From Gammaproteobacteria bacterium (GTDB lineage: Bacteria > Pseudomonadota > Gammaproteobacteria > Eutrophobiales > Eutrophobiaceae): a DNA stretch of 64,000 bases. Each line of letters starts with the position of its first letter. Position 1 is the stretch's first letter. Shown in pieces: positions 7,761-50,261 of the stretch. The position numbers were made by a program, and so were the translations under genes. A model generated the notes under the pieces. The model was not told the origin of the DNA. It saw nothing but the letters and a program-made list of their open reading frames with translations, and ran no database searches. The stretch is from contig OZ244905.1 of the NCBI GenBank assembly GCA_965221695.1, positions 1,920,001-1,984,000 on the forward strand. Direction: 5' to 3'.

Positions 7761-8669
7761 GTGGCGCTGTTTGAACATGGCTGTTGCTTACACCCGGCCC
7801 GGCATAAGAGGCAGGACGGGATCGCGCTGGTCCTGGTCCTCTGGCTGGTAGCGCTGCTGTCCATTATGGTTGCGGGCTTCAGTTACGCCATGCGAACGGA
7901 AACCTGGTTGACCATACATGGTATTGAATCGGCGCAAGCCCGCAGTCTGGCTGAAGCGGGTTTATGGTTGGCTGTGGGAGACTTGTTGAGTCCTGAAGCG
8001 GAAAGACGCTGGTCGGCTGACGGCACGGAGGTTGAAACAGAGTTCGATAACGAAAAAATCAGACTGCGTATTCAGGATGAAGCCGGCAAAATTGCTCTGA
8101 ACGAGGCAGACGATGAACTTCTGCTGGGCCTGTTAAAAACCGCCACAGCAACGGATAGTAAAGCGCTGTTCCTGCGCAATGCGATCCTGGACTGGCGCGA
8201 TGCCGACCAACAGGCGCGCAGCCCGGGTACCGAGGATAACCCTTCCACCGGTTACAACGCCAAAGATGGCCCGTTCAACAGCATAGAAGAATTGCGCCGT
8301 GTTGCCGGCATGACCGATAAAATATACGGCAAAATCAGCAAGGCCCTGACGATTCACTCTTTGCAACCGGGCTTCAACCCACTCCTGGCTCCGCGCAGCG
8401 TCCTAGATGCCGTGCCCGGCAGCAACAGCGACCTCATTGATGAATACCTGGCCAACCGCCACATACCAGGAGTAAACGCCACCATAACGGACCAGGATCA
8501 CCTCTATTTCAATGCCGACCAAGGGCGCGCCTATACCATTACCAGCACAGCCAGAGCAGGACGAAGCAGACTGGCGCTGACTGCTGTTATTGAACTGGAC
8601 AGGAATGTGACGCCCCCTTATTCGGCGCTCACCTGGCAGGAGTCTAAGCTGCATTATGAACACCCGTAA
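7761..8669 (+). CDS. gspK: T2SS minor pseudopilin GspK
   Basis: G|IALVLVLW, IQDEAGKIALN, ILDWRDAD, F.SIEELRRV.GM. Confidence 0.9.
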   Translation: MALFEHGCCLHPARHKRQDGIALVLVLWLVALLSIMVAGFSYAMRTETWLTIHGIESAQARSLAEAGLWLAVGDLLSPEAERRWSADGTEVETEFDNEKIRLRIQDEAGKIALNEADDELLLGLLKTATATDSKALFLRNAILDWRDADQQARSPGTEDNPSTGYNAKDGPFNSIEELRRVAGMTDKIYGKISKALTIHSLQPGFNPLLAPRSVLDAVPGSNSDLIDEYLANRHIPGVNATITDQDHLYFNADQGRAYTITSTARAGRSRLALTAVIELDRNVTPPYSALTWQESKLHYEHP

Positions 8670-10337: not shown

Positions 10338-10852
10338 AACTGAAGCGGCAGCCATTACACCGATTTCAGCGCGTTTTGCTGGCGCTGTGTGTAGTCCTGT
10401 CCGCATATACCATCTATGAGCTGTTCAGGCCACAGCAGGCGTCAGAGTTTGCGCAGACTACCGAACAGGATACACAAACCATAGCCGCTTTGTTGCAGCA
10501 GGCGGGCGTAGACATCCCGCCTATAGAGACATTTGTAGAGATCATCGAACGGCCGTTATTCATGCAAGACAGGCGACCCTACGTGGCGCCGGCGCCGGTC
10601 GTCATCCGTGAGCCTGAGCCACAGGCGCCGGCTGCGCCGGATATTACCGAGCAGATTTCATTGCGCGCGACCATCATCATCGGCGAAAAACGGATCGCGC
10701 TTATACAAGAACTTGCAAACGGCAGCCAACTTCGTTTAAATCAGGGTGAAGCGTATAACGGCTGGACCCTGACCGGTGTGGAAACCGGAGAAATATCCAT
10801 GAAAAAAGGAGAAGAAGTCAAACAGATACAACTGAAGAAGGGCCAGTCTTAA
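10334..10852 (+). CDS. T2SS GspC/XpsN-like protein
   Basis: N-terminal TM, RPLF..DRRP motif, GE.YNGWTL; lies between gspM and gspD as in Xanthomonas xps. Confidence 0.7.
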   Translation: MKLKRQPLHRFQRVLLALCVVLSAYTIYELFRPQQASEFAQTTEQDTQTIAALLQQAGVDIPPIETFVEIIERPLFMQDRRPYVAPAPVVIREPEPQAPAAPDITEQISLRATIIIGEKRIALIQELANGSQLRLNQGEAYNGWTLTGVETGEISMKKGEEVKQIQLKKGQS

Positions 10853-13026: not shown

Positions 13027-13241
13027 CAGGGTAGCACTGACAGACAGGTGGGGGCACCGCAAAGAACAGCTTGCATAGTGTCCGGTGTTGTACTAATTTT
13101 AATAGTGTAGTCTTTTTGTCGTGAGGGGCAAACATGACGTTAACCTGTTGGGTTATTCTATGACGCGCTGCCGGCAAGGCGTGCGTTTGTTGGATATATC
13201 GCTGCGCTGGTTGAAGGCGCCTGGTGCGATGTCTGGGTAGC

Positions 13242-22200: not shown

Positions 22201-25200
22201 TGGCCGTGTCGGGCAAGAAGGAGACGCTGGAGATGTACCCGCACAAGACAACCGCGCGCCCGCACCTTGCGACCCGGGTGACCAGCGGGCTGGGCGCGGT
22301 GACAGAGATTAGCTATGAGTCCTTGAGCCGCACCGAGGCCTATGGCCGCATTGCCGGATTGCGCCCCGGCGCGCCGGTGCGAAACTGTTTTGTCTTGGGA
22401 GATGATGAATTCTGTTATGATTTACCGTCCACGCAAGCGGATGCGACGGATTTCTACACGGCCTTAAACGATCCCTGGCCCACTGACGAGAACGACCCGA
22501 GCGATGTGGACCTGACCGACCCGCTGACGGCGACGGCGGGGGACACGCCGGTGCTCGAGCTGATGGGGCCGCTGTACGTGGTGACCCGGGTCGATTCCAG
22601 CGCCCCGACCGCGGGCAATGCGGGCGCCAAGAGCGGGGTGGCCTACGTGTACGAGCGCGGCAAAGTGCAGGCCGCCGGCCGGGGTCTGCTGGGGTTCCGG
22701 GCGCTGACCACGGTGGACCTGCAAAGCGGCGTGCGCACGACCACCACCTACCGCCAGGACTTCCCCTACATCGGCGCGCCGTTGCGCACTGAGGTCAAGA
22801 CCGAAGACGGCCACCTGCTGCGTTGGGCGCAGAACACCTGGCGCTTGCAGGGGTATGACGCCAGTTGGAATGCGCGCGCGGCGGCCAGCGGGGATAAGGC
22901 CGGCACGGGCAGCGCCCGGCTGGGGCCGTTGCAGCCGCACATTGCCGAGGCGGTGGAAGAGGAGTATGACCTGCCGGAGCCGGACAGCAGTGGCGACCTT
23001 AAGGCGGGGGCGAAGCTGACCACGGTGAGCACGGAGACGACCTACGACGGCTGGGGCAATCCGAGCGAGCTGACCACGACCACGGTGGACCATGCCAACG
23101 GCAAGCGTTTTCAGCAGGTGACCGAGAACGCCTATGCGGCGAGCGCCGCCGGCGAGGCGTCGACCTGGGCGCGGCAATATGGCCGCTTGACCCGGACGGA
23201 GGTGACCCGGCGCCGGGACGAGTCCTATATGGCTGAGGACGAGACCTATGAGTCCAGCGCCAGCCGGGCCTCGTCGTTTGCTTATTACACCAGCGACAAG
23301 AAGAAGGGGTTATTGAAGAGCGAGACCCGGGAGGCGGCCACCGGGACAAACGCGGTCCCGGCGCAGGTAACCACCTACAGTTATGACGCCTTCGGCAACC
23401 GCGTGCGAGCCAAGCTCAGCGCGGGGTCGGCCACCCGCTGCGACACGGACACGGCGGTCTATGACAGCGCCGGGCGCTTTGTCGTGGAAGAGCGCGATTG
23501 TCTGGGCCGCACGGTGCGGGAGCTGGGCGGGCACAACGGCTGGGGCCAGCCGACCTGGAGCAAGCGGGCGCTGAGCGCCGCGGGCGCGACTACGGCGGAC
23601 GCCGACTACCACTACACGCCCGGCGGGCGCCGCTATGCGAGTCGCGAGGCGGACGGGAGCTGGACGGGCTGGCTGCGGGCCTGGTGCGCGTCGGGCAACG
23701 GCTGCCCGGCCACGGCGGTGTACTACACCGAGACCCGCCAGGCGGGCGGGGGCCGGGCCCGGGAGTACCGGGATGCGCTGGGCCGGGTGACGCGTACTGC
23801 GACCATGGGGTTCGATGGCAGGTGGGTCTACACGGACACGGACTATGACGAAAACGGCCGGGTGGCCCGGCGCAGCGAGCCGTATAAGGCGGGCAGCGCC
23901 TCCGCCGTGTACTGGACGCGTTACACCTACGACCTGCTCGGCCGGGTGGCGCGCGCCGAGTTGCCGGATTATGCGGCCAACGGCGCGAACAGTGTGGTGA
24001 CCACCGCCTACGGGAGCTTGACCACGACCACGGCGAACGGGAAAGGCCAGCGCCGGCGGGTCACGCGCAACGCCTTGGGCGAGACGCTCACCAGCGCGGA
24101 GCTTGTCGAGGCCAACGAGACGGCCGGCCCCAACAAGGTGGACAAGGCCACGGTCACGCACCACTATGACGTCTGGGGCCGGACAACCAAGAGCGTGACC
24201 ACGAGCACGGACAACAAAACAGCAACTATCACGCGCCACTACGACCTGTGGGGCCGCATGACCAAAGAGACCGACCCGGCCCGGGGCGCGTGGACTTATT
24301 CGTACAACGGCTTTGACGAGCTGGTCGAGCGCGCCGACGCCGTGGGCAACCGCCAGACCCGCGCCTACGACGGGTTGGGTCGCCAGACAGTCCGCAAGGA
24401 CTACGCGCCCGGGCCGACGAGCGCCGTTGCCGACGATGTGCTGGCGGGGACGACCGCCTGGACCTATGACGCGCTGGCGGGGCAACCGGCCTGCGCGACG
24501 GCGCTGGGGCAGTTGTGCCAGGTCGCGCACAGCGCGGCCCGCGCCGAGACCCGCACCTATCACTACGACAGTCTCGGGCGCGTAACCCAAACCACGCAGG
24601 ACCGGGGCGCGGACGGGACTTATTACAGCAAACAGACCTACGATGAATACGGCCGGCCCTACCAGCGCTTTGACGCCGCCCGCGCGGGGTCGGCGACCCT
24701 GCGCTGGCAGGACAACGTGGTGGAGACGCGCTATAACGCCAACGGCTATGCGCACCGATGGGTGGACGGGATGTACGTGGGCGGCCAGCCACGCCGCACC
24801 TACCGGGAGATTGCCGGCATCGACGCCCGCGGCAACGTGACCCGGGAGAACCTCGGCGCCGGGGCGGTCAGCGTGCGCCGCGCCTATGACGCCAAGACCG
24901 GCCGGCTCGCCGGCATCACCGGCGAGGACCCCTTGGAGCGCACGCTGCAAGACCAGACCTATACCTGGGATATCGTGGGCAACCTGACCGAGCGCGCGCA
25001 GACCCTCGGCAAGACCACGTTAGAAGAGACCTTCGCCTATGACAGCCTTAACCGGCTGATCCAATCGAAGGTTGCCGGCGAGACGGCGCGAAACGTGACC
25101 TACGACGGGCTGGGGAATATCACCGCCAAGACCGGGGAGGATGGCTTGTTGGAGCAGTATGTCTACGGCGACACGGACCGCCCGCACCGGCTCACCCAGG

Positions 25201-26924: not shown

Positions 26925-26926
26925 CG

Positions 26927-27400
26927 ATGGTAAAACAGATTCTCAGTCTTTGTGTTATCAGTGTCCTGCTGCTTTGCTCTTGTACTGCCGGGCCACCGAA
27001 GGGAAAGATGAAGTCGATGGATTTGCACTTGGGCGAATCCAGTTACGCTGAGTTGGTGGATTTTTTGTATGAGTTTGCCCGAAAGCATCGTTTAACGGTG
27101 TTGTGGTTTGGCGCCTACGAGGTGGAGAACCCGACGCATTGGTTTGAGTATGCGAAAGAAGCGCTTGATGATCCTGAGTATGGTGGGTTCACGAGATTTA
27201 AGATCAAACTGGAGTTGTTGACTGAGGAAAATGGTTATCTGTTCTTCTCTAGTCACTATAATGTAAAACTGGCTGGCGCTGTCATAGACTACGGCGATGA
27301 GAAAGCCGTGTGGCTTGAGATCGTTGACGAGTTTGAACAAGCGTTGGCAGATCGCGGGTGGTGGTTGGGGGAGGGCAAGAGATATGGTTCGTGGGAATAG
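26927..27400 (+). CDS. Putative immunity lipoprotein for the main toxin tip
   Basis: Starts 2 bp after the toxin stop; hydrophobic leader ending LLCS|C; paralog at 32851. Confidence 0.75.
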   Translation: MVKQILSLCVISVLLLCSCTAGPPKGKMKSMDLHLGESSYAELVDFLYEFARKHRLTVLWFGAYEVENPTHWFEYAKEALDDPEYGGFTRFKIKLELLTEENGYLFFSSHYNVKLAGAVIDYGDEKAVWLEIVDEFEQALADRGWWLGEGKRYGSWE

Positions 27401-27470
27401 GGTTGAACCGACCAAATTGTTTGCTGCCTTTTGACCTTCCATACGTTTAAGGTCGGGGTAAAGGATTACA

Positions 27471-27502
27471 GAAGCAGGGCCGGACCTACCTAAAACTCTT
27501 TC
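27471..27502 (+). repeat. Cassette-boundary element copy 1 (5' part only)
   Basis: GAAGCAGGGCCGGACCTACCTAAAACTCTT resembles consensus GAAACAGGGTCGGACCTGCCTAACTCTT; Rhs homology starts at 27504. Confidence 0.7.
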
Positions 27503-27503
27503 A

Positions 27504-30112
27504 CCGACGCCGTGGGCAACCGCCAGACCCGCGCCTACGACGGGTTGGGTCGCCAGACAGTCCGCAAGGACTACGCGCCCGGGCCGACGAGCGCCGTTGC
27601 CGACGATGTGCTGGCGGGGACGACCACCTGGACCTATGACGCGCTGGCGGGGCAACCGGCCTGCGCGACGGCGCTGGGGCAGTTGTGCCAGGTCGCGCAC
27701 AGCGCGGCCCGCGCCGAGACCCGCGCCTATCACTACGACAGTCTCGGGCGCGTAACCCAAACCACGCAGGACCGGGGCGCGGACGGGACTTATTACAGCA
27801 AACAGACCTACGATGAATACGGCCGGCCCTACCAGCGCTTTGACGCCGCCCGCGCGGGGTCGGCGACCCTGCGCTGGCAGGACAACGTGGTGGAGACGCG
27901 CTATAACGCCAACGGCTATGCGCACCGATGGGTGGACGGGATGTACGTGGGCGGCCAGCCACGCCGCACCTACCGGGAGATTGCCGGCATCGACGCCCGC
28001 GGCAACGTGACCCGGGAGAACCTCGGCGCCGGGGCGGTCAGCGTGCGCCGCGCCTATGACGCCAAGACCGGCCGGCTCGCCGGCATCACCGGCGAGGACC
28101 CCTTGGAGCGCACGCTGCAAGACCAGACCTATACCTGGGATATCGTGGGCAACCTGACCGAGCGCGCGCAGACCCTCGGCAAGACCACGTTAGAAGAGAC
28201 CTTCGCCTATGACAGCCTTAACCGGCTGATCCAATCGAAGGTTGCCGGCGAGACGGCGCGAAACGTGACCTACGACGGGCTGGGGAATATCACCGCCAAG
28301 ACCGGGGAGGATGGCTTGTTGGAGCAGTATGTCTACGGCGACACGGACCGCCCGCACCGGCTCACCCAGGCCGACAGCGCCCACTTTGTCTACGACGCCA
28401 ACGGCAATGTCATCCAAGAGCACGAGACCGGCCAGGCCGCCAACCCGACGCGCAGCTTCGCCTACACGCCGTTTAACAAGGCGGCGTCCATCAAGCAAGG
28501 CACGCACACCACCGAGTTCGAGTACGGCCCGGACCGCAGCCGCACGCGCAGGGTGGACACCGTGAACACCGGCGCCGGGACCAGCGTGACCACGACCCTG
28601 TATTTCGGGGGGGCCGAGAAGGTCATCGCCCCCGATGGCAGTTACACCTGGAAACGCTATGTGGCCGACGGCTTTCTCATTGAGCAGACCTATAACAGCC
28701 ATGACACCCTCACTAAGGAAGATACCCGCCACCTGCTCAAAGACCACCTCGGCAGCATTGCCCTTATCCTTGATGAGGCGGGCCTCGACAAGGACCTGCT
28801 GCCGCTGCAACGCTTAAGCTACGACGCCTGGGGCCAGCGCCGCGCCCCGGATGACTGGACCCTCTTAGCCCGCCTGACCCTGAGCAGCCCCACCCATGGG
28901 GCGGTAACCCCGTATGGCTACACCGGCCATGAGATGCTCGACGCGGTGGGCATCATCCACATGAACGGGCGCATCTACGACCCTAAGCTCGGCCGCTTCC
29001 TGCAGGCCGACCCGGTGATTCAGTTCCCGAACATGGCCCAGAACCACAACCGCTACAGCTATGTGCTCAACAACCCGCTTGCCTATGTGGACCCGAGCGG
29101 GTATTTTATCGGGAAGTTGTTCAACAAGGTGTTCCGGGGACTGAACAAGCTGCTCGGGGACTTCGCCCCGTTCTTGAGCATTGCCTTGTTGGCCATCCCG
29201 GGGATGCAGCTTTGGGTGATGGAGTCCTGGATGCGGGCGTTTGCGTTCGGGTTTGTGACCGGCGGCATTGCCAGCGGCTCGTTCAAGGGGGCGTTATTCG
29301 GGGGTATCAGCGCCGCGGCGTTCTATGGGATAGGGCAGAAGTTTGTGAAGCCGACGGGGTTCTTCAAGCAGGGCGGTCTTGGGCATGTGCTGGCGCACGG
29401 GGTAACCGGCGGCATTATGGCAGAGATACAGGGGGGTCAGTTCGGTCACGGGTTCCTGGCCGCTGGCTTGACCAAGGCGGTGATGGGCCGGTTTGACTAT
29501 GCCGACCTCAGCGCCTCGGCGGTGACGGGGCGCGTGGCGATTGCCGCCATTGTCGGCGGCACCATCTCCCGCATCACCGGGGGCAAGTTTGCCAACGGGG
29601 CTTTGACTGCGGGCATGGCGCAGTTGTTGAATAATGAGACGCATGCCGCGGAGCAAGCGAAGAAGAGAATTCCAGTTTCAGCAAAAGCACAAGGAAACGA
29701 TGTTATTATTGAATATGGTGATGGTTCTATGGAGGTGCGCACTGGTGGAACAAGGGCGTGGCGTAATAATAATCCAGGCAATCTTGAAAATTCGGCCTTT
29801 TCTATTCGCCACGGCTCACTCGGAGAGGCTGGTGGTTTTGCGATCTTTGCCAGTGAACAGACGGGGAAAGATGCATTAGTTAATTTGTTGAAGGGTGGTA
29901 GCTACAAGAACTTAACTATTGCTAAAACTATTGAAAGATTTGCGCCTCCAATAGAGAATGATACGCAACATTATCAGAAGTTACTAAGGGGTTTTACTGG
30001 CCTTGATGGAAGCACTATCATGAATTCCCTTAATGACCAACAATTCAATAGTGTCGTAAACGCGATCATACGAGTAGAGGGTTGGCGTGAGGGAGACGTT
30101 ACTCTGAAATGA
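27504..30112 (+). CDS. Orphan Rhs-CT module 1 (truncated core, type-B linker, RNNNPGN lysozyme-like tip)
   Basis: 27504-29119 is near-identical to 24334-25949; no signal peptide or credible start; tip has AWRNNNPGNL and FAPP.END. Confidence 0.85.
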
Positions 30113-30585
30113 AGACGCATATCATTATAGTATTAGTTGGTTTGTTCCTCCTGCCAGGCAACTATTCATATGGATTTGACGAGTATCCATTCGAACCGGA
30201 GCTTGTTGAGCTTGAAGGGGTGTTTGAACGAGAAAAACATTTCGGGCCACCAAATTATGGTGAAACGCCTCAAGAAGATATATTATTAACTGTTTACGTC
30301 CTCAACCTGAACTCGCCGATCACTGCGGGAACCGCTGATACACTATCTGAGTTGAATACTGTCCCAGTGACTAACGTTAAAAAAGTCCAGGTTGGTTTCA
30401 TTGATCGGGAAGCAACTGAAAAGCGGATTGAAAAAATTGACAATCTGATTGGAAAAACAGTCCGGCTTAGAGGTAGTTTGTCTACTGGCATCACAGGCTA
30501 TCACTTTTATCGAATCTTATTTTTTGTATCAGAAAAAGAATTATTGTCACGAGTTATTGTACAAATCTGGTGTGCGGCCTCATAG
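30109..30585 (+). CDS. Putative periplasmic immunity protein, DUF4431-like
   Basis: ATGA overlap with the toxin stop; signal peptide; GPPNYGETP..D, L.L.SPI, VQV, LIGK.V.L.G.L...ITG.H motifs recalled for DUF4431. Confidence 0.7.
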   Translation: MKTHIIIVLVGLFLLPGNYSYGFDEYPFEPELVELEGVFEREKHFGPPNYGETPQEDILLTVYVLNLNSPITAGTADTLSELNTVPVTNVKKVQVGFIDREATEKRIEKIDNLIGKTVRLRGSLSTGITGYHFYRILFFVSEKELLSRVIVQIWCAAS

Positions 30586-30632
30586 TCAGGCGGCCCGCTG
30601 GTGTTGATAGGGCACGGAACAGACGAAAAGAC

Positions 30633-30762
30633 GAAACAGGGTAGGACCTGCCTAACTCTTCGTTTCCATTGAGTTGATTTGTTGCAGGAGTCTGCTCTGC
30701 TCCCTTAAACCCCACTTTTTGCTGTCAAAACCGAGGGTTTAAGATTCTTTTCCCTGTTTAAC
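30633..30762 (+). repeat. Cassette-boundary element copy 2 (full length, 130 bp)
   Basis: GAAACAGGG...CCCTGTTTAAC; colinear with copies at 33404, 41029 and 42714(-). Confidence 0.9.
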
Positions 30763-30796
30763 GGTATGCTTCTATACGATCTTTAATTTCACACGC

Positions 30797-32848
30797 CGCT
30801 GGCAGGACAACGTGGTGGAGACGCGCTATAACGCCAACGGCTATGCGCACCGATGGGTAGACGGGATGCACGTGGGCGGCCAGCCACGGCGGACCTACCG
30901 GGAGATTGCCGGCATCGACGCCCGCGGCAACCTGACCGAGCGCGCGCAGACCCTCGGCAAGACCACGTTAGAAGAGACCTTCGCCTATGACAGCCTTAAC
31001 CGGCTGATCCAATCGAAGGTTGCCGGCAAGACGGCGCAGAACGTCAGCTACGACGGGTTGGGGAATATCACGGCCAAGACCGGGGTGGGCGACTATGTCT
31101 ACGGCGACGCCAACCATCCGCACCGGCTCACCCAGGCCGACAGCGCCCACTTTGTCTACGACGCCAACGGCAATGTCATCCAAGAGCACGAGACCGGCCA
31201 GGCCGCCAACCCGACGCGCAGCTTCGCCTACACGCCGTTTAACAAGGCGGCGTCCATCAAGCAAGGCACGCACACCACCGAGTTCGAGTACGGCCCGGAC
31301 CGCAGCCGCACGCGCAGGGTGGACACCGTGAACACCGGCGCCGGGACCAGCGTGACCACGACCCTGTATTTCGGGGGGGCCGAGAAGGTCATCGCCCCCG
31401 ATGGCAGTTACACCTGGAAACGCTATGTGGCCGACGGCTTTCTCATTGAGCAGACCTATAACAGCCATGACACCCTCACTAAGGAAGATACCCGCCACCT
31501 GCTCAAAGACCACCTCGGCAGCATTGCCCTTATCCTTGATGAGGCGGGCCTCGACAAGGACCTGCTGCCGCTGCAACGCTTAAGCTACGACGCCTGGGGC
31601 CAGCGCCGCGCCCCGGATGACTGGACCCTCTTAGCCCGCCTGACCCTGAGCAGCCCCACCCATGGGGCGGTAACCCCGTATGGCTACACCGGCCATGAGA
31701 TGCTCGACGCGGTGGGCATCATCCACATGAACGGGCGCATCTACGACCCTAAGCTCGGCCGCTTCCTGCAGGCCGACCCGGTGATTCAGTTCCCGAACAT
31801 GGCCCAGAACCACAACCGCTACAGCTATGTGCTCAACAACCCGCTTGCCTATGTGGACCCGAGCGGGTATTTTATCGGGAAGTTGCTGCGCAAGGTGGTG
31901 GGCCTGTTCATCAACGGACCCTTTGAGTTGCTGTTCAGCTTGGTTCCCCAACTGCGACCGCTCTCCACCCTGTTCATCTGCGCCAGCGGCAATCCGGCGC
32001 TGTGCGCGATGGCGGCGGCCGGCAATGCGTATGCATCCGGGGCGTCGTTGAAGCAGTCGTTAAAAGCGGGGGTGTTTGCGTATGTGTCGGCGCAGGCGTT
32101 TGCGGCGGTGGGCGACTATTTTACCGGCATTGAGGCGGTGGGCGGCGTGGGGCACTGGGGCGCGCATGCGCTAACGGGCGGGATATTGGCGGAGTTGCAG
32201 GGCGGGGAGTTCGGGCACGGGTTCTTAGCCGCTGGGGTGGCCTTTGGGGTCGGACGCTTGGGCGAGAGCCAGAGCTGGTCGGTGGAGACGCAGTTGGCGG
32301 CCAGGGCGGTGAGCGCCGGGACGGTGAGCGAGGTGACCGGCGGCAAGTTTGCCAACGGGGCAATGACCGCGGCGTTTGCGTATATTTTTAATGAGTTGGC
32401 GCATTCCTATGAATACCAAACAAAAATATGCAACCGCTCTGAGTCTGCTTGCACAGAGGAGATTGTTTGGCCCTCTGTCAAGAGACAATCTGTGCCATTT
32501 CAGAAGGGTATGTTAAAGGACGGCGATGTTACTAAAATACCGGGGGTTGGTTCAGTCCGGACGCTAGTGGATGATGCCAATTACAGGCTTACTAATCGAA
32601 CAGAAGACGATCATCTGTTCAAAGGGACTGTCACCCGCTCTCTAGTGGTGACAGATGATGCCATATACGTCAGGACAGTGGGTGTGGGCGCTAACACCAG
32701 TTGGGGTATACGAGCGCTGAATTACGGCGCATCAAGTTACTTTCCGGCTGTCGCAGACATGATTGTGAAGATGGATATTCATTTTCATCAACATGCGCAG
32801 AATATTATGGACGGAAATTATTACATGTTCCATTTAGGGCAATATTAG
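30797..32848 (+). CDS. Orphan Rhs-CT module 2 (type-A linker; tip is a diverged allele of the main tip)
   Basis: Homology to the main gene starts at 30797 (=24702); in-frame 147-bp deletion; ends ...GNYYMFHLGQY like the main toxin. Confidence 0.85.
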   Translation, partial: RWQDNVVETRYNANGYAHRWVDGMHVGGQPRRTYREIAGIDARGNLTERAQTLGKTTLEETFAYDSLNRLIQSKVAGKTAQNVSYDGLGNITAKTGVGDYVYGDANHPHRLTQADSAHFVYDANGNVIQEHETGQAANPTRSFAYTPFNKAASIKQGTHTTEFEYGPDRSRTRRVDTVNTGAGTSVTTTLYFGGAEKVIAPDGSYTWKRYVADGFLIEQTYNSHDTLTKEDTRHLLKDHLGSIALILDEAGLDKDLLPLQRLSYDAWGQRRAPDDWTLLARLTLSSPTHGAVTPYGYTGHEMLDAVGIIHMNGRIYDPKLGRFLQADPVIQFPNMAQNHNRYSYVLNNPLAYVDPSGYFIGKLLRKVVGLFINGPFELLFSLVPQLRPLSTLFICASGNPALCAMAAAGNAYASGASLKQSLKAGVFAYVSAQAFAAVGDYFTGIEAVGGVGHWGAHALTGGILAELQGGEFGHGFLAAGVAFGVGRLGESQSWSVETQLAARAVSAGTVSEVTGGKFANGAMTAAFAYIFNELAHSYEYQTKICNRSESACTEEIVWPSVKRQSVPFQKGMLKDGDVTKIPGVGSVRTLVDDANYRLTNRTEDDHLFKGTVTRSLVVTDDAIYVRTVGVGANTSWGIRALNYGASSYFPAVADMIVKMDIHFHQHAQNIMDGNYYMFHLGQY

Positions 32849-32850
32849 CG

Positions 32851-42713: not shown

Positions 42714-42844
42714 GTTAAACAAGGATAAAGAATCTTAAAACCCCGGTTTTGACGGCAAAAAGTGGGGTTTAAGAGAGCACAACAGACACCTGCAACAAAT
42801 CAGCTCAATGGAAACAAAGAGTTAGGCAGGTCCGACCCTGTTTC
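42714..42844 (-). repeat. Cassette-boundary element copy 6 (full length, inverted)
   Basis: GTTAAACAAGG...GTTAGGCAGGTCCGACCCTGTTTC is the reverse complement of copies 2, 3 and 5. Confidence 0.9.
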
Positions 42845-42846
42845 TC

Positions 42847-42999
42847 TCAGCATATCATCATGAAGTATTTGAGGAATATGGATTGCCTGCTAACACTTTT
42901 GGCGGCACGCCGCTAACAGGCGCGCTTTGGGAGGCGGATATTAATTTCGGCAAAGCGTTGGGCCTGCCCTATTGGTGCGAAGGGTGTGCGCCGAAATGA
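42847..42999 (+). pseudogene. 3' remnant of a toxin C-terminus
   Basis: Start-less frame SAYHHEVFEEYGLPANTFGGTPLTGALWEADINFGKALGLPYWCEGCAPK*; stop overlaps the next ATG (ATGA). Confidence 0.55.
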
Positions 43000-43715
43000 A
43001 CGCATTAGTGAACCTGGTTCGTGCCTTCTGCCTGTTTCTGGCAGTTATTTCGATGAGCGCTGATGCGTTTGATATGGATACCGTCAAGATCAAGGTTGGC
43101 AAGCATCATTTGACTGTTCCAGAACGCTATATGATAGAGCCTCAGATACCAATCTGGTTGCGTTGGGTGCCGGGACTGGCGCCGAGCGAGGGGGGCATCA
43201 TACTTGATATAAAAGCGGAAGACATCGCTGCTGAAGTGCCGGGTTATCAAATCTATGACGGCCGATATAAGGCGGATTGCATACTGCTTATCCAGGTCAA
43301 GGGTGAAAAAGAATTAAAGACATACCTGGACCCGCATTGGCATTATTATAGTGACATGTGGTACGGGCGCGGTTTTTACAGCAATCGAGTTGTTGAAAAG
43401 CATGCGCGCTCTGGATTTTATAAATTATATGACAAAGGCATTGAATCATCTTGGCGTGCTGTAAGAATTTACCCGGATGCCAGCCAACCGATACCCGATG
43501 ACCCGTTTGCTTTTTGGGTGGCGAGCTGTCTAAATGGGACTTCTCCCAGAACGCGAAGTGGCCGGATAACGAGGTGCAAGACCAGGATAATATACGATGA
43601 CCTGCTCTTGGATTTTGGCGTGGCTGAATTTAATTTGCATTTGATTGATGAAGTCAGAGCGATGATGCTTAGGCAGTTGTTGCTATGGAAGGGTGAAATG
43701 GTAGCAGTGGAGTAA
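42996..43715 (+). CDS. Exported protein, putative orphan immunity protein
   Basis: Signal peptide MNALVNLVRAFCLFLAVISMSADA; coupled to the CT remnant; followed 4 bp later by the boundary element. Confidence 0.6.
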   Translation: MNALVNLVRAFCLFLAVISMSADAFDMDTVKIKVGKHHLTVPERYMIEPQIPIWLRWVPGLAPSEGGIILDIKAEDIAAEVPGYQIYDGRYKADCILLIQVKGEKELKTYLDPHWHYYSDMWYGRGFYSNRVVEKHARSGFYKLYDKGIESSWRAVRIYPDASQPIPDDPFAFWVASCLNGTSPRTRSGRITRCKTRIIYDDLLLDFGVAEFNLHLIDEVRAMMLRQLLLWKGEMVAVE

Positions 43716-43719
43716 CAGC

Positions 43720-43737
43720 GAAACAGGGTCGGACCTG
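43720..43737 (+). repeat. Cassette-boundary element copy 7 (5' 18 bp)
   Basis: GAAACAGGGTCGGACCTG, exact match to copies 4 and 5. Confidence 0.8.
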
Positions 43738-43911
43738 AATAAATGCAAGCTTACCAAAGACGCCTGGGGCAACGACTACCGATATGAAGCGCCTGGAAAA
43801 AACGGACTCTATGATCTATATTCCTATGGCGCGGATAATTCCTCCGGGGGCTCTCGCGAAGACAGGGATATTGTCAGTTGGGAGTAAAAGTGGCATCACC
43901 CTGGTCGAATT
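43733..43911 (+). pseudogene. Relic of a gspG 3' end / gspH 5' start
   Basis: Ungapped alignment to 6090-6268, 23 mismatches in 179 bp counted by eye; reads KDAWGNDYRYEAPGKNGLYDLYSYGADNSSGGSREDRDIVSWE*. Confidence 0.9.
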
Positions 43912-43982
43912 ATCGTTTATCTATACGACAATCTGTATAGATTTCCGGGATTGTTTGAATATAACAGAACGAGGGCGAAGCG

Positions 43983-46900
43983 ATGGCAACTGCAAAAGAA
44001 AAAAACGATGCGCCTGACAACATGTCCACCCCTTACGAGATGGATTTAAGCGCCGACGAGTATACGTTTGAAGGGTGGATTGACGATAACAAGGACCAGG
44101 ACTGGGTCAAAATCCAGCTCACAAAAGGAATATTGTACACCATTACGCTTCAGGGAAAAGGCAGCAAAAACGTTCAGGCTGCCGATCACACCGTGCTGAT
44201 ACTCTACGACGCAAAGGGAAATGAAATCGCTCGCTCGGATGCGAGTTCACGTTCTTCCTCAAGTTCAACAATAGACTTTACTGCGCCGGCAAATGACGTA
44301 TATTTCCTCAGCGCCGGCGTCAATGCAGTGGATAAGAAAAAGGATTATTCGGGTCATTATGAAATTAAGGTTTATGAGTCCAAGCCGCAGGATAAAGATG
44401 AGGGGATAATATTCAAGGGCACAGCGGCCCCTGAGGTAATAGAAGGCGGGAAAGGCAACGATCTGCTCGACGGCTTGGGAGGTGACGATACGATATACGG
44501 TTATGGCGGCGACGACACGATAACAGGCGGCGATGGCGATGACGTTATCGTTGGTGGGCCGGGGGCTGACAAACTCGATGGCGGAAATGACATTGATTTA
44601 ATTGCGTATTTCGATTCACCGGCAGCAGTCAAAATAAACCTGCTCTATCGCACAGCCTGGGGCGGTGATGCCGAGGGAGATAGGATAGGTCCGGATATTG
44701 AAGGGGTGGCAGGATCCGACTTTGAAGACGAACTGGCGGGAAATGATGGGTTCAACATTATCTTGGGCGGCGCCGGTGATGACATCATATACGGATTGGG
44801 AGATGTTGACTTATTACTCGGCGAAGCAGGTGACGACAGGATAAACGGCGGCAAGGGTCCTGATTATATTGTTGGAGGTGAGGGTGACGATTCTCTATTC
44901 GGCGAGGATGGCGATGATCAGTTGATAGGAGAGGCCGGCAATGACAAGCTGTATGGTGGAGCTGGCGATGATTGGCTGACAGGACAGACCGGTGATGACA
45001 AGCTGAATGGCGGCGCTGGCGGTGATGCGCTTGAAGGAGGCGCCGGCAATGATACTCTGGATGCTGGTGCTGGCGATGATACGCTAGAAGGAGGCGTCGG
45101 CGATGATACTCTGGATGGTGGTGATGGCGATGATCATCTGGCAGGAGGGGCCGGCGATGATAAGCTGTATGGTGGCTATGGTAATGATAGGCTGACGGGT
45201 GGGCCAGGCGCTGATGATCTAATCGGTGGTCCTGGCAGGGATGTTGCCTCATTCCATTATTCGAACGCGGTGACAGTGCGGCTACATTCATTTGAGTTGA
45301 GCGGCGGCGATGCCGAGGGCGATACTTTTGGTGGCAGGGGCGATCCAATAGTATATACAGACGAGGACGGCAACGAGAAAACGTTCATACCAGCCGATAT
45401 TGAGGATCTTCAGGGATCCACTTCTAATGACACTCTGGCCGGCGATATCAGAGCTAATTTCATCGATGGCGGTTCAGGGGACGACAACATCCAAGGTATG
45501 GCTGGCGATGACTTCCTGGATGGCAATGATGGTGATGACATTCTTGATGGCGGCGCTGGTGATGATACGCTGCGAGGCGGTTCAGGTAGTGACCATGTGA
45601 CAGGCGGAGGTGGCGCTGATACGCTCGAAGGCGGCCCCGGCTGGGATACATTATCGTATTATGATTCACCCGAAGCAGTTGAGGTGAACCTGTCATCCGG
45701 CTTAGCCAAAGGTGGTGATGCTGAGGGAGATACATTAGGGCTGGGTTTTGAATATCTGGAAGGTTCCCAATTTGCTGACAAACTGACGGGCAACAGCGAC
45801 CGTAATACGATATGGGGTCGCGCTGGTGATGATGTTCTTGAAGGAGGCGCGGGCGATGACCTTCTGGATGGTGGCGTGGGCGACGATTCGCTGAATGGCG
45901 GCGCTGGGTATGATTTGTTGAGAGGTGGACCCGGCGCTGATGAGCTGATCGGTGGTCCTGGTGGGAATATGGCCTCTTTCTATTTTTCTGACGCTGCGGT
46001 GACAGTGCGTCTGCATTCCTTCGAGTTAAGTGGTGGCTATGCCGAAGGCGATACATTTGGTGGCAGGGACGACCCCATAGTGTATACAGACGAGGAGGGC
46101 AACGAGAAAACGTTCATCCCTGCTGATATTACTAGTCTCCGAGGCTCTGAATGGAATGACATTCTGGTTGGCGATATCAGAAATAATTTCATCGGGGGAG
46201 TTGGTGGTGATGACAAGATTCAAGGCATGGCGGGCAACGATTACCTATATGGTGGCGATGGCAATGACATCTTGGATGGCGATGATGGTGATGACTTTCT
46301 TGATGGTAGGCAAGGCAATGATACTCTGAACGGTGGCGCTGGTGATGACTGGTTAGAAGGCGACGCGGGTGATGATACGCTGCGGGGTGACGCAGGCAAT
46401 GACCATGTGGCAGGTGGCGCGGGCGCTGATACGCTCGAAGGCGGCCCGGGCTGGGATAGATTATCCTATTTCGATTCACCCGAAGCAGTAGAGGTGAACC
46501 TGTCATCCGGTTCAGCCAAAGGTGGTGATGCCGAAGGGGATACGATAGGGCTGGATTTTGAAGTTCTGCATGGTTCTGAATTTGACGACAAACTGACGGG
46601 AAATAGCGGCAATAATTTCATATGGGGTTACACCGGCAATGATGCTCTTGAAGGAAGCGATGGCGATGACCTTCTGGAGGGTGACGCGGGCGACGATTCA
46701 CTGAAAGGCGGCGATGGCAATGATGAACTGAGAGGCGGAGCTGGCGCTGATGAGCTGATCGGTGGTCCTGGCAGGGATGTTGCTGCATTCTATTATTCGG
46801 ACGCGGCAGTGATAGTGCGTCTGCATTCCTTTGAGTTGAGCGGCGGCGATGCCGAGGGCGATACCTTTGGTGGCAGGGACGACCCCATAGTGTATAGAGA

Positions 46901-49166
46901 CGAGGAGGGCAACGTGAAAACGTTCACACCAGCCGATATTGAAGGTCTGATTGGTTCTAAATGGAATGACGTTCTGGTTGGTGATATCAGGGATAATGCC
47001 ATCCGAGGCTTTGATGGTCATGACAACATCGTAGGCATGGCTGGCAATGACACTTTGGATGGCAATGATGGTAATGACATTGTTTATGGTGATGCTGGCG
47101 ATGATACGCTGCGAGGCGGCGCAGGGAATGACTTTTTGGAGGGTGGCGCAGGCGCTGATACGCTCGAAGGCGGCACGGGCCGGGATACACTATCCTATTT
47201 TAATTCACCTGAAGCAGTTGAGGTGAACCTGTCATCCGGCTTAGCCAAAGGTGGTGATGCCGAGGGTGATACCTTAGGTTTGGATTTTGAGAAGCTGGAA
47301 GGTTCCGAATTTGCTGACAAACTGACGGGGAACAGCGGCAGTAATTTCATATGGGGTTATGCAGGCGATGATGCTCTTGAAGGTGGCGCAGGCGATGATG
47401 TTCTGGAGGGTGGCGCGGGCGACGATTCACTGAAAGGCGGCGATGGCGATGACGAGTTGAGAGGCGGCGCCGGTGATGATCATGTGACAGGTGGCGCAGG
47501 CGCAGATACGCTCGAAGGCGGCCCGGGTCTGAATACACTATCCTATATTAATTCACCCGAAGCAGTTGAGGTGAATCTGTCAACCGGTTTGGCCAAAGGC
47601 GGTGATGCTGAGGGTGATACCTTAGGGCTGGATTTTGAAAGTCTGATTGGTTCCAAATTTAATGACAAACTGACCGGAAACAGTGGTAATAATTCGATAC
47701 TTGGTGGCAGGGGTAATGATACGGTGCATGGCGGCGCTGGCGATGATACGCTGGATGGACACGATGGCGATGATGATCTTAGAGGTGGAGCGGGCAATGA
47801 TGGTTTGTACGGCGACTCTGGTGACGATTCGCTGAATGGTGGTGATGGCGATGATGATCTTTGGGGATATCCCGGCAATGATACCTTGATCGGTGGCGCC
47901 GGCGATGATCTACTGCACGGCGGCAGTGGTAACGACAATCTGGAAGGTGGTCCTGGCGCGGATGTGCTCTATGGTAGCGTCGGTGGAGATTCGCTGCACG
48001 GCGGCATTGGTAATGACTATGTGGAAGGTGGCCCTGGCGCGGATGTGCTTAATGGTGGCGCTGGCGTTGATAATTTGTCTTACATTGGCTCGATGGAAGC
48101 GGTCGAAGTCGACCTGTCATCGGGTTCAGCCAAAGGTGGTGATGCAGAGGAAGATACATTGGGACTTGATTTTGAAAATGTTCAAGGTTCTCAATTTGCT
48201 GACAAGCTGACCGGGAACAGTGGCAATAACGTGATACGAGGCCAAGGCGGTAATGATACGCTACGTGGCGGCGCCGGCAATGATGAGCTTCACGGCGGGA
48301 AGGGAGAAGATATATTGTGGGGTGACGCTGGCAATGATACGTTTTATGGCGGCGAGGACAATGACATCATCTACGTTGACGGTATGGATGATGATGCAAA
48401 TATTGATGGGGGCAGTGGCCATTTTGATATTGTGTCCTACGAACATGCAGGATTGAGTGAAGGTGTTACAAAAAACATCAGTGATTTTAATGGCATCGAA
48501 TATATCATCGGCACGAGCCACGCTGACACGCTAACAGATGACATTGATATGGGGAATAACTATCTTGAAGGCGGTCCGGGCGCTGATACTCTTGACGGTG
48601 GCGATGGATATGATTATTTAGCGTATAGCCAATCCAGTGAGGGAGTAACAGTAAATCTATCGACGAATATCACCAGTGGCGGTGATGCTGCCGGCGATAC
48701 CGTGAAAAACTTCGAGGCTATCGCCGGGTCTGAGCATAATGATAATTTAACCGGTAACGATAGTGATAATAATTTATTTGGCCTGGGCGGTGACGATAAT
48801 CTTGCGGGTGGCGCCGGCCCGGATCTTATTTTAGGTGGACAAGGCGATGACACATTGACGGGTGGGAGTGGCAATGATCTTTATTTGTTCTTCCCCGGTG
48901 ACGGGGATGACGTCATCACGGATTTTGGTGATGGTAGTGATGTGATCATACTCGCCGATTTTAACTCTAGTATTGAGAGTGTGGATCTTAAAACTATTAT
49001 AAGCCAAGAAGGCGATGATGTGATTTTTGATCTGGAGGACTTTGGCGGCGGGTCAATAACAGTGCAAGCTAGCGAGGACAATACCGTAAGTGTTTCTGAT
49101 TTTATTGATGAGAACGGAGAGACAACGGATGTTTTGCTCATTTCATACTCTGAATCTGCCGCTTAG
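43983..49166 (+). CDS. Large RTX (hemolysin-type Ca-binding repeat) protein with N-terminal PPC-like domain
   Basis: Many GGxGxDxL nonapeptides; repeated SY.DSPEAVEVNL..G.AKGGDAEGDT blocks; N-terminal D.DWVKIQL..G..YTITL; no Sec signal; C-terminal G.DVITDF. Confidence 0.9.
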   Translation: MATAKEKNDAPDNMSTPYEMDLSADEYTFEGWIDDNKDQDWVKIQLTKGILYTITLQGKGSKNVQAADHTVLILYDAKGNEIARSDASSRSSSSSTIDFTAPANDVYFLSAGVNAVDKKKDYSGHYEIKVYESKPQDKDEGIIFKGTAAPEVIEGGKGNDLLDGLGGDDTIYGYGGDDTITGGDGDDVIVGGPGADKLDGGNDIDLIAYFDSPAAVKINLLYRTAWGGDAEGDRIGPDIEGVAGSDFEDELAGNDGFNIILGGAGDDIIYGLGDVDLLLGEAGDDRINGGKGPDYIVGGEGDDSLFGEDGDDQLIGEAGNDKLYGGAGDDWLTGQTGDDKLNGGAGGDALEGGAGNDTLDAGAGDDTLEGGVGDDTLDGGDGDDHLAGGAGDDKLYGGYGNDRLTGGPGADDLIGGPGRDVASFHYSNAVTVRLHSFELSGGDAEGDTFGGRGDPIVYTDEDGNEKTFIPADIEDLQGSTSNDTLAGDIRANFIDGGSGDDNIQGMAGDDFLDGNDGDDILDGGAGDDTLRGGSGSDHVTGGGGADTLEGGPGWDTLSYYDSPEAVEVNLSSGLAKGGDAEGDTLGLGFEYLEGSQFADKLTGNSDRNTIWGRAGDDVLEGGAGDDLLDGGVGDDSLNGGAGYDLLRGGPGADELIGGPGGNMASFYFSDAAVTVRLHSFELSGGYAEGDTFGGRDDPIVYTDEEGNEKTFIPADITSLRGSEWNDILVGDIRNNFIGGVGGDDKIQGMAGNDYLYGGDGNDILDGDDGDDFLDGRQGNDTLNGGAGDDWLEGDAGDDTLRGDAGNDHVAGGAGADTLEGGPGWDRLSYFDSPEAVEVNLSSGSAKGGDAEGDTIGLDFEVLHGSEFDDKLTGNSGNNFIWGYTGNDALEGSDGDDLLEGDAGDDSLKGGDGNDELRGGAGADELIGGPGRDVAAFYYSDAAVIVRLHSFELSGGDAEGDTFGGRDDPIVYRDEEGNVKTFTPADIEGLIGSKWNDVLVGDIRDNAIRGFDGHDNIVGMAGNDTLDGNDGNDIVYGDAGDDTLRGGAGNDFLEGGAGADTLEGGTGRDTLSYFNSPEAVEVNLSSGLAKGGDAEGDTLGLDFEKLEGSEFADKLTGNSGSNFIWGYAGDDALEGGAGDDVLEGGAGDDSLKGGDGDDELRGGAGDDHVTGGAGADTLEGGPGLNTLSYINSPEAVEVNLSTGLAKGGDAEGDTLGLDFESLIGSKFNDKLTGNSGNNSILGGRGNDTVHGGAGDDTLDGHDGDDDLRGGAGNDGLYGDSGDDSLNGGDGDDDLWGYPGNDTLIGGAGDDLLHGGSGNDNLEGGPGADVLYGSVGGDSLHGGIGNDYVEGGPGADVLNGGAGVDNLSYIGSMEAVEVDLSSGSAKGGDAEEDTLGLDFENVQGSQFADKLTGNSGNNVIRGQGGNDTLRGGAGNDELHGGKGEDILWGDAGNDTFYGGEDNDIIYVDGMDDDANIDGGSGHFDIVSYEHAGLSEGVTKNISDFNGIEYIIGTSHADTLTDDIDMGNNYLEGGPGADTLDGGDGYDYLAYSQSSEGVTVNLSTNITSGGDAAGDTVKNFEAIAGSEHNDNLTGNDSDNNLFGLGGDDNLAGGAGPDLILGGQGDDTLTGGSGNDLYLFFPGDGDDVITDFGDGSDVIILADFNSSIESVDLKTIISQEGDDVIFDLEDFGGGSITVQASEDNTVSVSDFIDENGETTDVLLISYSESAA

Positions 49167-49378
49167 AGACTTTAACAAAAACTGTGTAAACCGCCCATCA
49201 TTAACCTTAACGTCGCACCTGGTGTCAACGCTGGCAAAACCTGAGCGTCCTGTTCCGCTACCCGGATGACATTCGCAAGGCGACTTATACGACAAACGCC
49301 ATCGAATCCCTGAACTGCGTAATCCGCAAGGCCGTCAAGAAGCGCAAGCTGTTCTCGTCGGACGATGCGGCGGCCTTC
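49166..49378 (+). mobile_element. Internally deleted IS256-family remnant
   Basis: IS256-like end GAGACTTTAACAAAAACTGTGTAA at 49166; 49232-49375 translates WQNLSVLFRYPDDIRKATYTTNAIESLNCVIRKAVKKRKLF. Confidence 0.8.
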
Positions 49379-49412
49379 CGCGGACAGGAAGTTAAATGCC
49401 CTACAGGCAGTG

Positions 49413-49937
49413 TTATCCAGGCAAAAGAAACAGCTTGAAGGCGGTGAACAGCGAACCCGTGAATGCAGCTTGAATCAGGACAATTTTTACCATCAGTCGT
49501 AATTCCAGATTCTTGAGCCGGTGGTCCATCGATATTTCCTGCTTCTCCATCTCGTGGCGTAGCGATGTTTCCATTTTCTCCATATCGCTACGAAGGGATG
49601 TTTCCATGCTCTCCATATCGCCCCGCAGATTCTCGATGTCACCGCGAAGCGATGCTTCCATCTTCTCCATATCGCTACGAAGCGCTGTCTCCGTCTTCTC
49701 CATGTCGCCCCGCAGGGATGTTTCCATTTTCTCCATGTCGCCGCGAAGCGCGGTTTCCATGCTCTCCATATCGCTACGAAGCGTAGTCTCCGTCTTAGCC
49801 AGATCAGCCTTGGTCGCTACTCGCTCATTAATCGCATCTTGCACCAGTATCACCACCGATTCCGCTTGTTTGGCCTCCATGCCGGAGTCCTTCAAGCCTT
49901 GCGCCATCTTCAGCGTATAAAAAGCTACATCTGTCAT
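49413..49937 (-). CDS. DUF1640/CCDC90-like coiled-coil membrane protein with 33-bp repeats
   Basis: F.TLK....L..SG....QAE, ATKADL, repeated DMEKMETSLR(G/S), C-terminal TM helix. Confidence 0.8.
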   Translation of the reverse strand: MTDVAFYTLKMAQGLKDSGMEAKQAESVVILVQDAINERVATKADLAKTETTLRSDMESMETALRGDMEKMETSLRGDMEKTETALRSDMEKMEASLRGDIENLRGDMESMETSLRSDMEKMETSLRHEMEKQEISMDHRLKNLELRLMVKIVLIQAAFTGSLFTAFKLFLLPG

Positions 49938-50159
49938 TTTTCCGTCTCCGATCTTGTTGTTCATTTCACTTGGCCGGAACGCCGACCTATGCTCCGCAGG
50001 TCATAAACCCAGCGGGAGGCAGCCCGGATTATTGTTCCCTTTGCATCACTGCCGCATCCGGCGACAGTTCGGGACTGCTCTCAGGTGTTACTCTATCTGC
50101 AAGTCTTCGAGGTTGTCAAATCAAAGTGTTTTTCAATATGAAATGAGCCTAAAAACTAG

Positions 50160-50176
50160 AATTAGGCAGGTCCGAC
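50160..50176 (-). repeat. Cassette-boundary element copy 8 (17-bp fragment)
   Basis: Reverse complement GTCGGACCTGCCTAATT is identical to part of copy 5. Confidence 0.55.
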
Positions 50177-50261
50177 TATGAATTCTGGATATCGTAATTC
50201 AGTTGTGTCTCGCTGTTTCCCCTCCAAGGTGACAGCCTTTGCTACGACACAGCTTACTCCG

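Follow-up and report, generated by a model that had tools for sequence, protein, structure and literature searches.

We analysed 64,000 nt of genomic DNA from a Gammaproteobacteria bacterium of the Eutrophobiaceae (assembly GCA_965221695.1, contig OZ244905.1, positions 1,920,001 to 1,984,000 of the forward strand; hereafter the window), in which copies of a non-coding repeat of ~130 bp lie among Rhs toxin, immunity and toxin–antitoxin (TA) genes. The source genome, labelled G000, is a single contig of 3.54 Mb (window, G000:C1:1920001-1984000); genomes of the same genus, 23 including G000, carry G0xx labels and extracted loci L0xx or L1xx labels. The original prediction took the repeat for a recombination site used in trans to capture Rhs tips and immunity genes. 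We found that it is the left arm of a longer, dispersed, genus-wide repeat family. We consider it probable that this family is genus-specific and non-autonomous, and that its copies in the window are old, immobile relics rather than a dedicated capture site.

The repeat copies and the Rhs array

The window holds an Rhs orphan array, that is, a full Rhs gene followed by 5′-truncated cores, each with a new tip and a small open reading frame (ORF):

13224-26924, plus strand: main Rhs gene (4566 amino acids), which heads the array by its tip (ORF list)
26927-27400: immunity candidate of the main Rhs gene (ORF list)
27512-30112, 30812-32848 and 33658-36273, plus strand: three orphan Rhs units with downstream small ORFs (RHS_repeat matches)

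The orphan cores map on amino acids 3694-4566 of the main Rhs protein, with 5′ truncation points at amino acids 3705, 3825 and 3694, and the Rhs core repeats in the window are 95–100% identical. Other genes of the region are a nucleotidyltransferase gene, a ParE/RHH pair, two small ORFs, a 247-amino-acid ORF, an RTX protein gene and a CCDC90-like gene. The map of Rhs, immunity, orphan and TA genes that had been drawn for this region agrees with the ORF list and the domain matches.

We called copies of the repeat in the window and the genome by nhmmer, using a profile built from six copies. Sequence reading together with nhmmer recovered all eight copies and fragments that had been predicted:

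30633-30762, plus strand: full short-form (left-arm) copy (nhmmer E 1.2e-46); element sequence runs on to ~30790
33404-33535, plus strand: full short-form copy (E 1.9e-40), followed directly by an Rhs fragment (main Rhs amino acids 3270-3299) and then the orphan 3 core
41029-41160, plus strand: full short-form copy (E 2.7e-44), with a downstream Rhs-like flank in common with copy 33404
42714-42844, minus strand: full short-form copy, inverted (E 4.2e-45)
37044-37106, plus strand: internally deleted copy, its 5′ 27 nt fused to its 3′ 37 nt, preceded by a 72-nt Rhs fragment
27466-27501, plus strand: partial left end of ~36 nt (E 0.21, profile 5-38), running straight into the truncated orphan Rhs 1 core, whose homology begins at 27506
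43714-43742, plus strand: partial left end of ~20-28 nt (E 0.099), at the stop of the 247-amino-acid ORF
50157-50177, minus strand: left-end fragment of 17-18 nt, for which nhmmer gave an E of only 3.4; by eye, 17 nt are identical to 41037-41053

Each copy's left end begins (G/T)AAACAGGGTCGGACC. The sharp ends ascribed to the repeat hold for this GAAACAGGG (left) end only; the right end varies. Copies 30633 and 42714, and a copy at genome position 2234980, extend ~25–40 nt to the right into sequence belonging to the longer element seen in relatives, and copies 33404 and 41029 have ~55 further nt of Rhs-like right flank in common. A truncated Rhs core or Rhs-like fragment, said to be the usual sequel of the right end, follows four of the eight window copies (at 27501, 30762, 33535 and 41160). 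Between 41029 and 42844, two short-form copies form an inverted pair with their left ends outward, bracketing 1.8 kb in a layout like that of a composite element; the segment between them contains an Rhs fragment, the ParE/RHH pair and the two small ORFs. The claim that no copy lies outside this region stands for the window, in which nhmmer found no further convincing copy, and fails for the genome, which holds more.

A genus-wide repeat family and its parent unit

The repeat was matched in 15 of the 22 other genomes of the genus and in none of 18 genomes of other genera. In G019, G001, G003, G015 and others, the homology covers ~309 bp and is sharp at both ends. The termini form a 17-bp inverted repeat with two mismatches (CAGGATAGGGTCGGACC / GGTCTGACCCTATACTG), the inverted ends lie ~275 nt apart, and the core of the terminal repeat, GGTCNGACC, is itself palindromic. 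G001 has the whole-element span at 11 places; 12 distinct complete copies were listed, and their flanks contained no target-site duplication. The end 11-mer AGGGTCRGACC occurs 38 times in G019, versus 2 occurrences of the reversed control, and 65 times in G001 versus 5, and about ten pairs of it in G019, 280–330 bp apart, are scattered round the chromosome. Neighbours of the element in relatives, G019 and G020 among them, include CoA-transferase, ion-channel, nuclease, ADP-ribosylglycohydrolase, TA and defence-type genes. A BLAST search of a plasmid collection with the 309-bp and 151-bp forms gave no match. The exact left-end 22-mer was present in one record among genome contigs, a metagenome-assembled genome resembling G008, and in one metagenome contig (L099), where the match is limited to the first 26 nt. 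On L099, in an unrelated context beside an MFS transporter gene and a DUF4174 gene, two copies of the left-end ~26 nt lie ~50 nt apart at ~280-365, the upstream one diverged, with no other element sequence.

Y1_Tnp matches occur in 15 of the 23 genus genomes, with none in G000 or G008. In G019 and G013, an ORF of 261 amino acids on the opposite strand precisely fills the interval from a left arm (profile 5-181) to a right arm (176-318):

L101 (G019:C1:2383000-2387000), 1264-2640: parent unit, with two tandem left arms and three tandem right arms
L102 (G013:C3:1355000-1359000), 1302-2277: parent unit

The suspected link to HUH Y1 (RAYT-like) transposases was thus borne out, though the gene is not in G000, which has neither a Y1_Tnp match nor a tblastn match to the 261-amino-acid protein below E 2. 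The two proteins scored 32.1 and 33.9 bits on Pfam Y1_Tnp (cut-off 23). Their best NCBIfam match was the REP-associated tyrosine transposase (RAYT) model NF047646, at 69.5 and 66.6 bits, under its 80-bit equivalog cut-off; the NCBIfam IS200 model gave 17.5 bits for the G019 protein and no match for that of G013. The protein carries an H-I-H motif, which we read as the HUH motif, and a later R-Y-H, which presumably holds the catalytic tyrosine; a sequence search of the PDB gave no relevant match. Proteins of the 261–265-amino-acid type gave one match each in G019, G013 and G006, of which we examined the first two, and the upstream flank of the gene is syntenic between these, with 75% identity over 1.4 kb. 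Pairing of exact 11-mers 0.7–3 kb apart in four genomes had found no long unit; the Y1_Tnp search found it. A Tn3-type transposase, sought as a partner because the repeat end presumably resembles a Tn3 end, was rejected, as one fragment in one of the 23 genomes was all that was detected.

The window copies, the 309-bp form and the left arms of the parent units co-align over the last ~36 codons of the 261-amino-acid ORF. This marks the 309-bp form as an internal-deletion derivative of a unit of ~976 bp and the 130-bp form as the left end of that unit plus an antisense coding relic, which in turn explains the conserved blocks and the apparent internal hairpin of the short form. With a RAYT-like Y1 gene enclosed by 17-bp inverted ends, the parent unit occupies an unusual position between IS200-type elements and REP/RAYT systems. 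In G020 (G020:C1:1070824-1070994; L051 6824-6994), a Y1_Tnp fragment (model 2-58, HVH motif) stops 4 nt short of an array copy's left end; it is probably a transposase gene cut off at this boundary of the element, within the Rhs array. At 19 of 72 distinct left ends (for example, G000 genome 2234965-2234995, L020 ~1480-1500 and L055 ~10680-10705), the variable heptamer just outside GGGTCGGACC repeats, with at most one mismatch, within 25 nt upstream; a reversed-heptamer control did so at 6 of 72. Right ends show similar stutters of 5–25 nt.

Outside the window, nhmmer placed five further copies in G000:

genome 2234980-2235137: copy beginning at the stop of a sulfatase gene
genome 2237417-2237568: copy overlapping the end of an AAA_14/DUF4143 ATPase gene
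genome 2237504-2237626: inverted partial copy beside the preceding one
genome 42885-42994: diverged copy between an oxidoreductase gene and a sulfatase gene
genome 563056-563176: diverged copy between ppiD and two tRNA genes adjoining lon

A right-end core motif at genome position 562952, near the last of these, suggests that it may be a complete old copy. The spacer between ppiD and the two tRNA genes next to lon is also an insertion hot spot in the genus (L013, G000:C1:556000-569999, 6870-7400): by match coordinates, the gap is ~50–130 nt in G005, G006, G010, G012 and G014 and ~3–20 kb in G002, G003, G004, G008, G013, G018, G020 and G022. An empty-site comparison there gave no insertion borders, as the intergenic DNA is too diverged. 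By GC skew, the G000 origin lies near 1.83 Mb and the terminus near 0.38 Mb; 10 of the 14 G000 copies and fragments point with the fork, too few to judge a strand bias. The original prediction held that copies scattered regardless of toxin loci would speak for an ordinary repeat, and shared flanks for passive co-duplication; to a large extent this is the pattern we found: G000 has non-toxin contexts, copies are scattered in G019 and G001, and flanks are shared among part of the array copies.

Identity among the four full window copies is 73–86%, and for three of them a copy in the sister species G008 is an equally close or closer match. There, L052 is a decayed syntenic counterpart of the region, where an RTX gene and CCDC90-like genes remain along with Rhs fragments, arms and an IS21 end. 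Together, this closeness and the L052 remnants indicate that the arms predate the split of the two species and that the Rhs cores were homogenised afterwards. G008 also seems to have an orphan immunity gene remote from Rhs cores: at L053 (G008:C2:230000-249999; 7789-8223, minus strand), a homologue with 74% identity to the main Rhs immunity candidate lies by itself in the sulfatase/ATPase island, 135 nt from a short-form copy.

The family thus arose by internal deletion of a unit made of the left end, the opposite-strand gene for the 261-amino-acid Y1/HUH RAYT-like protein and the right end, with the short form retaining the terminal inverted repeat (...AGGGTCGGACC...) and an antisense relic of roughly the last 36 codons, and G000 has lost the transposase gene. 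For the copies in the window, we propose the following history. They would have been seeded by HUH-type insertion that left no target duplication. As old relics, they would occupy the spacers behind immunity and TA genes, the one part of an old Rhs orphan array and accessory island that can be dispensed with; there, they would have been carried, duplicated and right-truncated by the recombination that builds such arrays, acting at most as homology patches. The window copies would accordingly be immobile passengers.

Rhs arrays and rival readings

Across the 23 genomes, nine have both the element and Rhs, seven the element only, three Rhs only and four neither, which shows no dependence of one on the other. 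G005 has nine Rhs-core matches over 28 kb without the element and without any other repeat common to the junctions. Arrays of genes and arms built from left-arm-only copies also occur without Rhs; L061 in G004, for example, has seven such copies, with partial duplication of units and with one arm and its downstream flank attached to differing upstream genes. In G020, which has 10 array copies in 47 kb (truncation points 576, 281, 357, 89, 96, 162, 211 and 96), three copies have one junction and as much as 1329 nt of flank in common, which shows co-duplication; the other units have no shared junction. The Rhs fragment that window copies 33404 and 41029 have in common is further evidence of co-duplication.

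Several observations weigh against treating the copies as neutral passengers. Left arms lie inside or beside an Rhs locus in six of the nine genomes that have both (G000, G004, G008, G014, G018 and G020; assemblies of at most 6 contigs), the other three being fragmented, with the features on different contigs, so that adjacency there cannot be judged. In these six, the arms are oriented as the Rhs genes and stand between an immunity-type ORF and the next truncated core. The predicted enrichment at Rhs loci is therefore real in six species, and it is far above what a neutral passenger needs. Element/core junctions differ in most units of G020 and G000, so one junction was not simply copied, and homology between copies extends to the right and stops at the left end (orthologous or overlapping extracts excepted). 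Left-arm-only copies have a lineage-typical length and occupy several loci per genome, which suggests that the left arm spreads as a unit even without the right end. Gene context is skewed too: among 79 distinct left ends (54 short-form; left end at most 150 nt from an ORF 3′ end, with ORFs called crudely and copies not independent), the short-form left ends follow a co-oriented ORF in 36 of 54 cases, an opposed one in 4 and none in 14, and for complete copies these counts are 5, 7 and 13. Finally, structural-variant breakpoints fall at element edges (30634, 33534, 41159, 42816 and 42848).

These breakpoints come from contigs of four public runs on other samples, assembled from short reads and aligned on window positions 26000-45900. 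In run X2, 27400 is joined to 30634 with six other letters between; one contig departs from the reference where the conserved core ends (29641) and returns at 30629, 4 nt before the element; and 41159 is joined back to 40402. In run X1, 37037 is joined back to 33534, and 41977 to 42816, so that 41978-42815 is missing. At least one variant joint belongs to a second locus. Because repeats break contigs assembled from short reads, finding breakpoints at their edges is no surprise, and we take the contigs as evidence of a polymorphic region, not of a mechanism.

The same variants bear on a reading in which the arm is a portable homology patch. Direct left-arm repeats and the conserved core would serve as RecA substrates, and units of core fragment, toxin tip and immunity gene would loop out, reinsert, swap or pass between strains, so that cassettes would be shuffled with no recombinase devoted to the task. 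In G000, G020 and G004, each unit has copies in the same orientation on either side, the X2 contig running from 29641 to 30629 fits a swapped tip and immunity gene between two conserved anchors, and other joints end at the element edges listed above. Models of homologous replacement or displacement for such arrays are set out in PMC5361080 and PMC3967940. Nonetheless, we find this reading doubtful: at the identities given above over ~130 nt, the copies are poor RecA substrates, the X2 joint from 27400 to 30634, with its six foreign letters, is not a product of element-by-element recombination, the assemblies break at repeats in any case, and the G005 orphan array was built without the element.

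It is unlikely that the short form is a co-opted 3′-end element, kept behind genes, as REP and BIME sequences are, because it terminates the upstream transcript, stabilises the 3′ end of the mRNA or insulates one unit from the next. The co-orientation of upstream ORFs would suit such a role, as would an unbiased downstream neighbour (20 co-oriented versus 24 opposed). The bias is mostly the usual preference for convergent gene ends (16 convergent contexts), with tandem contexts, which are informative on orientation, at 14:3. The plus strand folds with an internal hairpin in all four full window copies (z −2.7, +0.8, +0.7 and −1.9), so that two of the four support the role and two fold no better than shuffles, and the conserved blocks are explained as a coding relic. 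No consensus structure emerged from 18 copies in nine genomes (RNAalifold, −2.56 kcal/mol, internal hairpin not predicted). An Rfam scan of 26000-52000 gave no match beyond two chance-level snoRNA rows. No promoter or plus-strand terminator was flagged in the element, the sole overlapping row being a minus-strand site at 30653-30634; terminator-like sites numbered 21 in total, versus 18.9 in shuffles.

We regard as quite unlikely a one-ended mode of mobility, in which the left end is the nick and entry site of a Y1/HUH enzyme and rolling-circle-like events mobilise the left arm with DNA to its right, inserting it preferentially at the left flank of resident copies. It would explain the always-sharp left and variable right ends, the rightward-only homology, the tandem arms at the RAYT-like gene, the heptamer stutter (19/72 versus 6/72) and the enrichment at Rhs arrays in six species. 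Were it true, a RAYT-like enzyme would have built head-to-tail arrays of left arm, truncated Rhs core, toxin tip and immunity gene, and of left arm and TA genes, an HUH-driven analogue of the integron.

The remaining rival is the model of the original prediction, in which the element works like attC and a tyrosine recombinase or another integrase, acting in trans, adds and removes cassettes there one at a time. The best G000 match to the integron integrase model TIGR02249 was 81.9 bits against a cut-off of 265, from two XerC/D-sized ORFs far from the window, and none of the 23 genus genomes had an integron integrase at E ≤ 1e-30; the control genomes, none of which is known to carry one, were empty as well. 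Core sites of attC follow the consensus RYYYAAC ... GTTRRRY. The repeat does not: its 5′ end in G000 is GAAACAGGG, and its 3′ end, GTTTAAC, fits only partly. Nor is the 3′ boundary conserved, since it reads GTTTAAC in G000 and GTCTGACC in G020, and the short form ends ~10 nt earlier in G004, G014 and G018. Despite gene-then-repeat units in one orientation that include TA genes, and an 8-bp terminal inverted repeat (AAACAGGG/CCCTGTTT) that pairs in the predicted plus-strand fold of two of the four window copies (30633 and 33404), this model is very improbable, given the missing integrase, a 3′ boundary and GTT-like motif that differ between species, demonstrable descent from a Y1 transposase unit by deletion, and copies scattered in housekeeping contexts. 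A trans-acting capture site for Rhs tips thus finds no support, all the more as copies lie off toxin loci and the G005 array formed without them.

We also record other features of these islands. An IS21-family insertion sequence, separate from the repeat, lies within the array:

38065-40644, minus strand: IS21-family insertion sequence with terminal inverted repeats (IstB_IS21, 252 bits; rve and Mu-transpos_C_2)

A 203-amino-acid ORF before copy 41029 was rejected as a gene, being largely IS21 terminal sequence. IS21-family ends with repeated GGGTGGCAGC motifs occur within a few hundred nt of element copies in G000, G008 and G001 (window 38065-40644; L032/L052, L056 and L057), perhaps because both favour the same islands. 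Another recurrent neighbour of element copies, at both G000 loci and in G008, is a CCDC90-like coiled-coil gene with 33-bp tandem repeats:

window 49413-49964, minus strand: CCDC90-like gene
L011 13313-13705, minus strand: CCDC90-like gene
L052 5883-6494 and 8536-9235: CCDC90-like genes

The giant Rhs gene contains a long array of 237-, 516- and 753-bp tandem coding repeats (13339-17057 and 18515-18858), some copies of which are 99–100% identical.

Comparison with known systems

Integron attC arrays, and attC clusters without an integrase, resemble the present array in their same-orientation units of gene plus repeat, TA genes included, and the repeat has what we take to be about the size of long chromosomal attC sites. 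Unlike them, it has no IntI, its core motifs are not conserved and it is of transposon origin. Recognising this removes a false lead, for what looks like an integron-like array of toxin cassettes is punctuated by transposon relics, not by recombination sites.

The Rhs genes themselves conform to Rhs and contact-dependent growth inhibition (CDI) orphan toxin–immunity arrays, for which displacement models are given in PMC3150448, PMC3967940 and PMC5361080. Here, too, a main Rhs gene precedes 5′-truncated cores with new tips and immunity genes, and the variable truncation points fit homology-facilitated illegitimate recombination, which PMC5361080 presents, with homologous replacement, as a model for orphan arrays. 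Such models need no punctuating repeat, whereas here a transposon relic fills the spacer in six species, and our literature search for a repeat or miniature inverted-repeat transposable element (MITE) in Rhs orphan arrays turned up no paper describing one. The presence of the arm in these spacers raises the question of whether dispersed relics help polymorphic-toxin loci to grow and exchange tips.

Among mobile elements, classical MITEs with terminal inverted repeats and DDE transposases are likewise short, non-coding and multi-copy, arise by internal deletion and cluster in accessory regions; they differ in that the present family has no target-site duplication and that the sole gene of its parent unit is Y1/HUH, not DDE. 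IS200/IS605 elements have a Y1 transposase, no terminal inverted repeats, subterminal hairpins and no target-site duplication. With these, the family shares a Y1_Tnp match over the Pfam cut-off, a single small ORF in a unit of ~1 kb, the absence of target-site duplication in the 12 complete copies and non-autonomous deletion derivatives. It departs from them in its 17-bp terminal inverted repeat, the lack of a convincing subterminal hairpin on the left (folding energy −2.1 kcal/mol, z +0.73, no better than shuffles; −5.8 kcal/mol, z −1.5, for the right end), a coding unit that is apparently single-copy rather than multi-copy and the weak or missing match to the NCBIfam IS200 model.

REP and REPIN repeats with RAYT genes are described, in PMC3116915, PMC3337134 and PMC5581495, from Pseudomonas fluorescens SBW25 and E. 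coli, and PMC3733652 defines the GTAG or CGTC tag of the REP. The REP itself is an imperfect palindrome of 20–40 nt, paired into a hairpin doublet. As in those systems, a Y1/HUH gene that matches the RAYT model best among NCBIfam models has the repeat on both sides (G019 and G013), there appears to be one such gene per genome, with a left flank syntenic between two species, the flanking repeat is over-represented genome-wide, copies are extragenic and mostly at gene 3′ ends, and they persist in genomes without the gene. Unlike in those systems, the protein has 261 amino acids against a model of 146 positions and scores 67–70 bits, under the 80-bit cut-off, and there is no 20–40-nt palindrome, no GTAG or CGTC at the ends and no hairpin doublet of ~100 nt. 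Because the repeats of 130–309 bp hold transposase coding relics, they are insertion-sequence-derived deletion derivatives, not REP doublets. The family is therefore nearest to REP/REPIN–RAYT systems and IS200-type elements and falls fully under neither definition. It is an unusual family, with a RAYT-like Y1 gene in a unit that has true inverted ends and with deletion derivatives and one-armed relics that persist across the genus, and its place between IS200-type elements and domesticated REP/RAYT systems bears on how one becomes the other.

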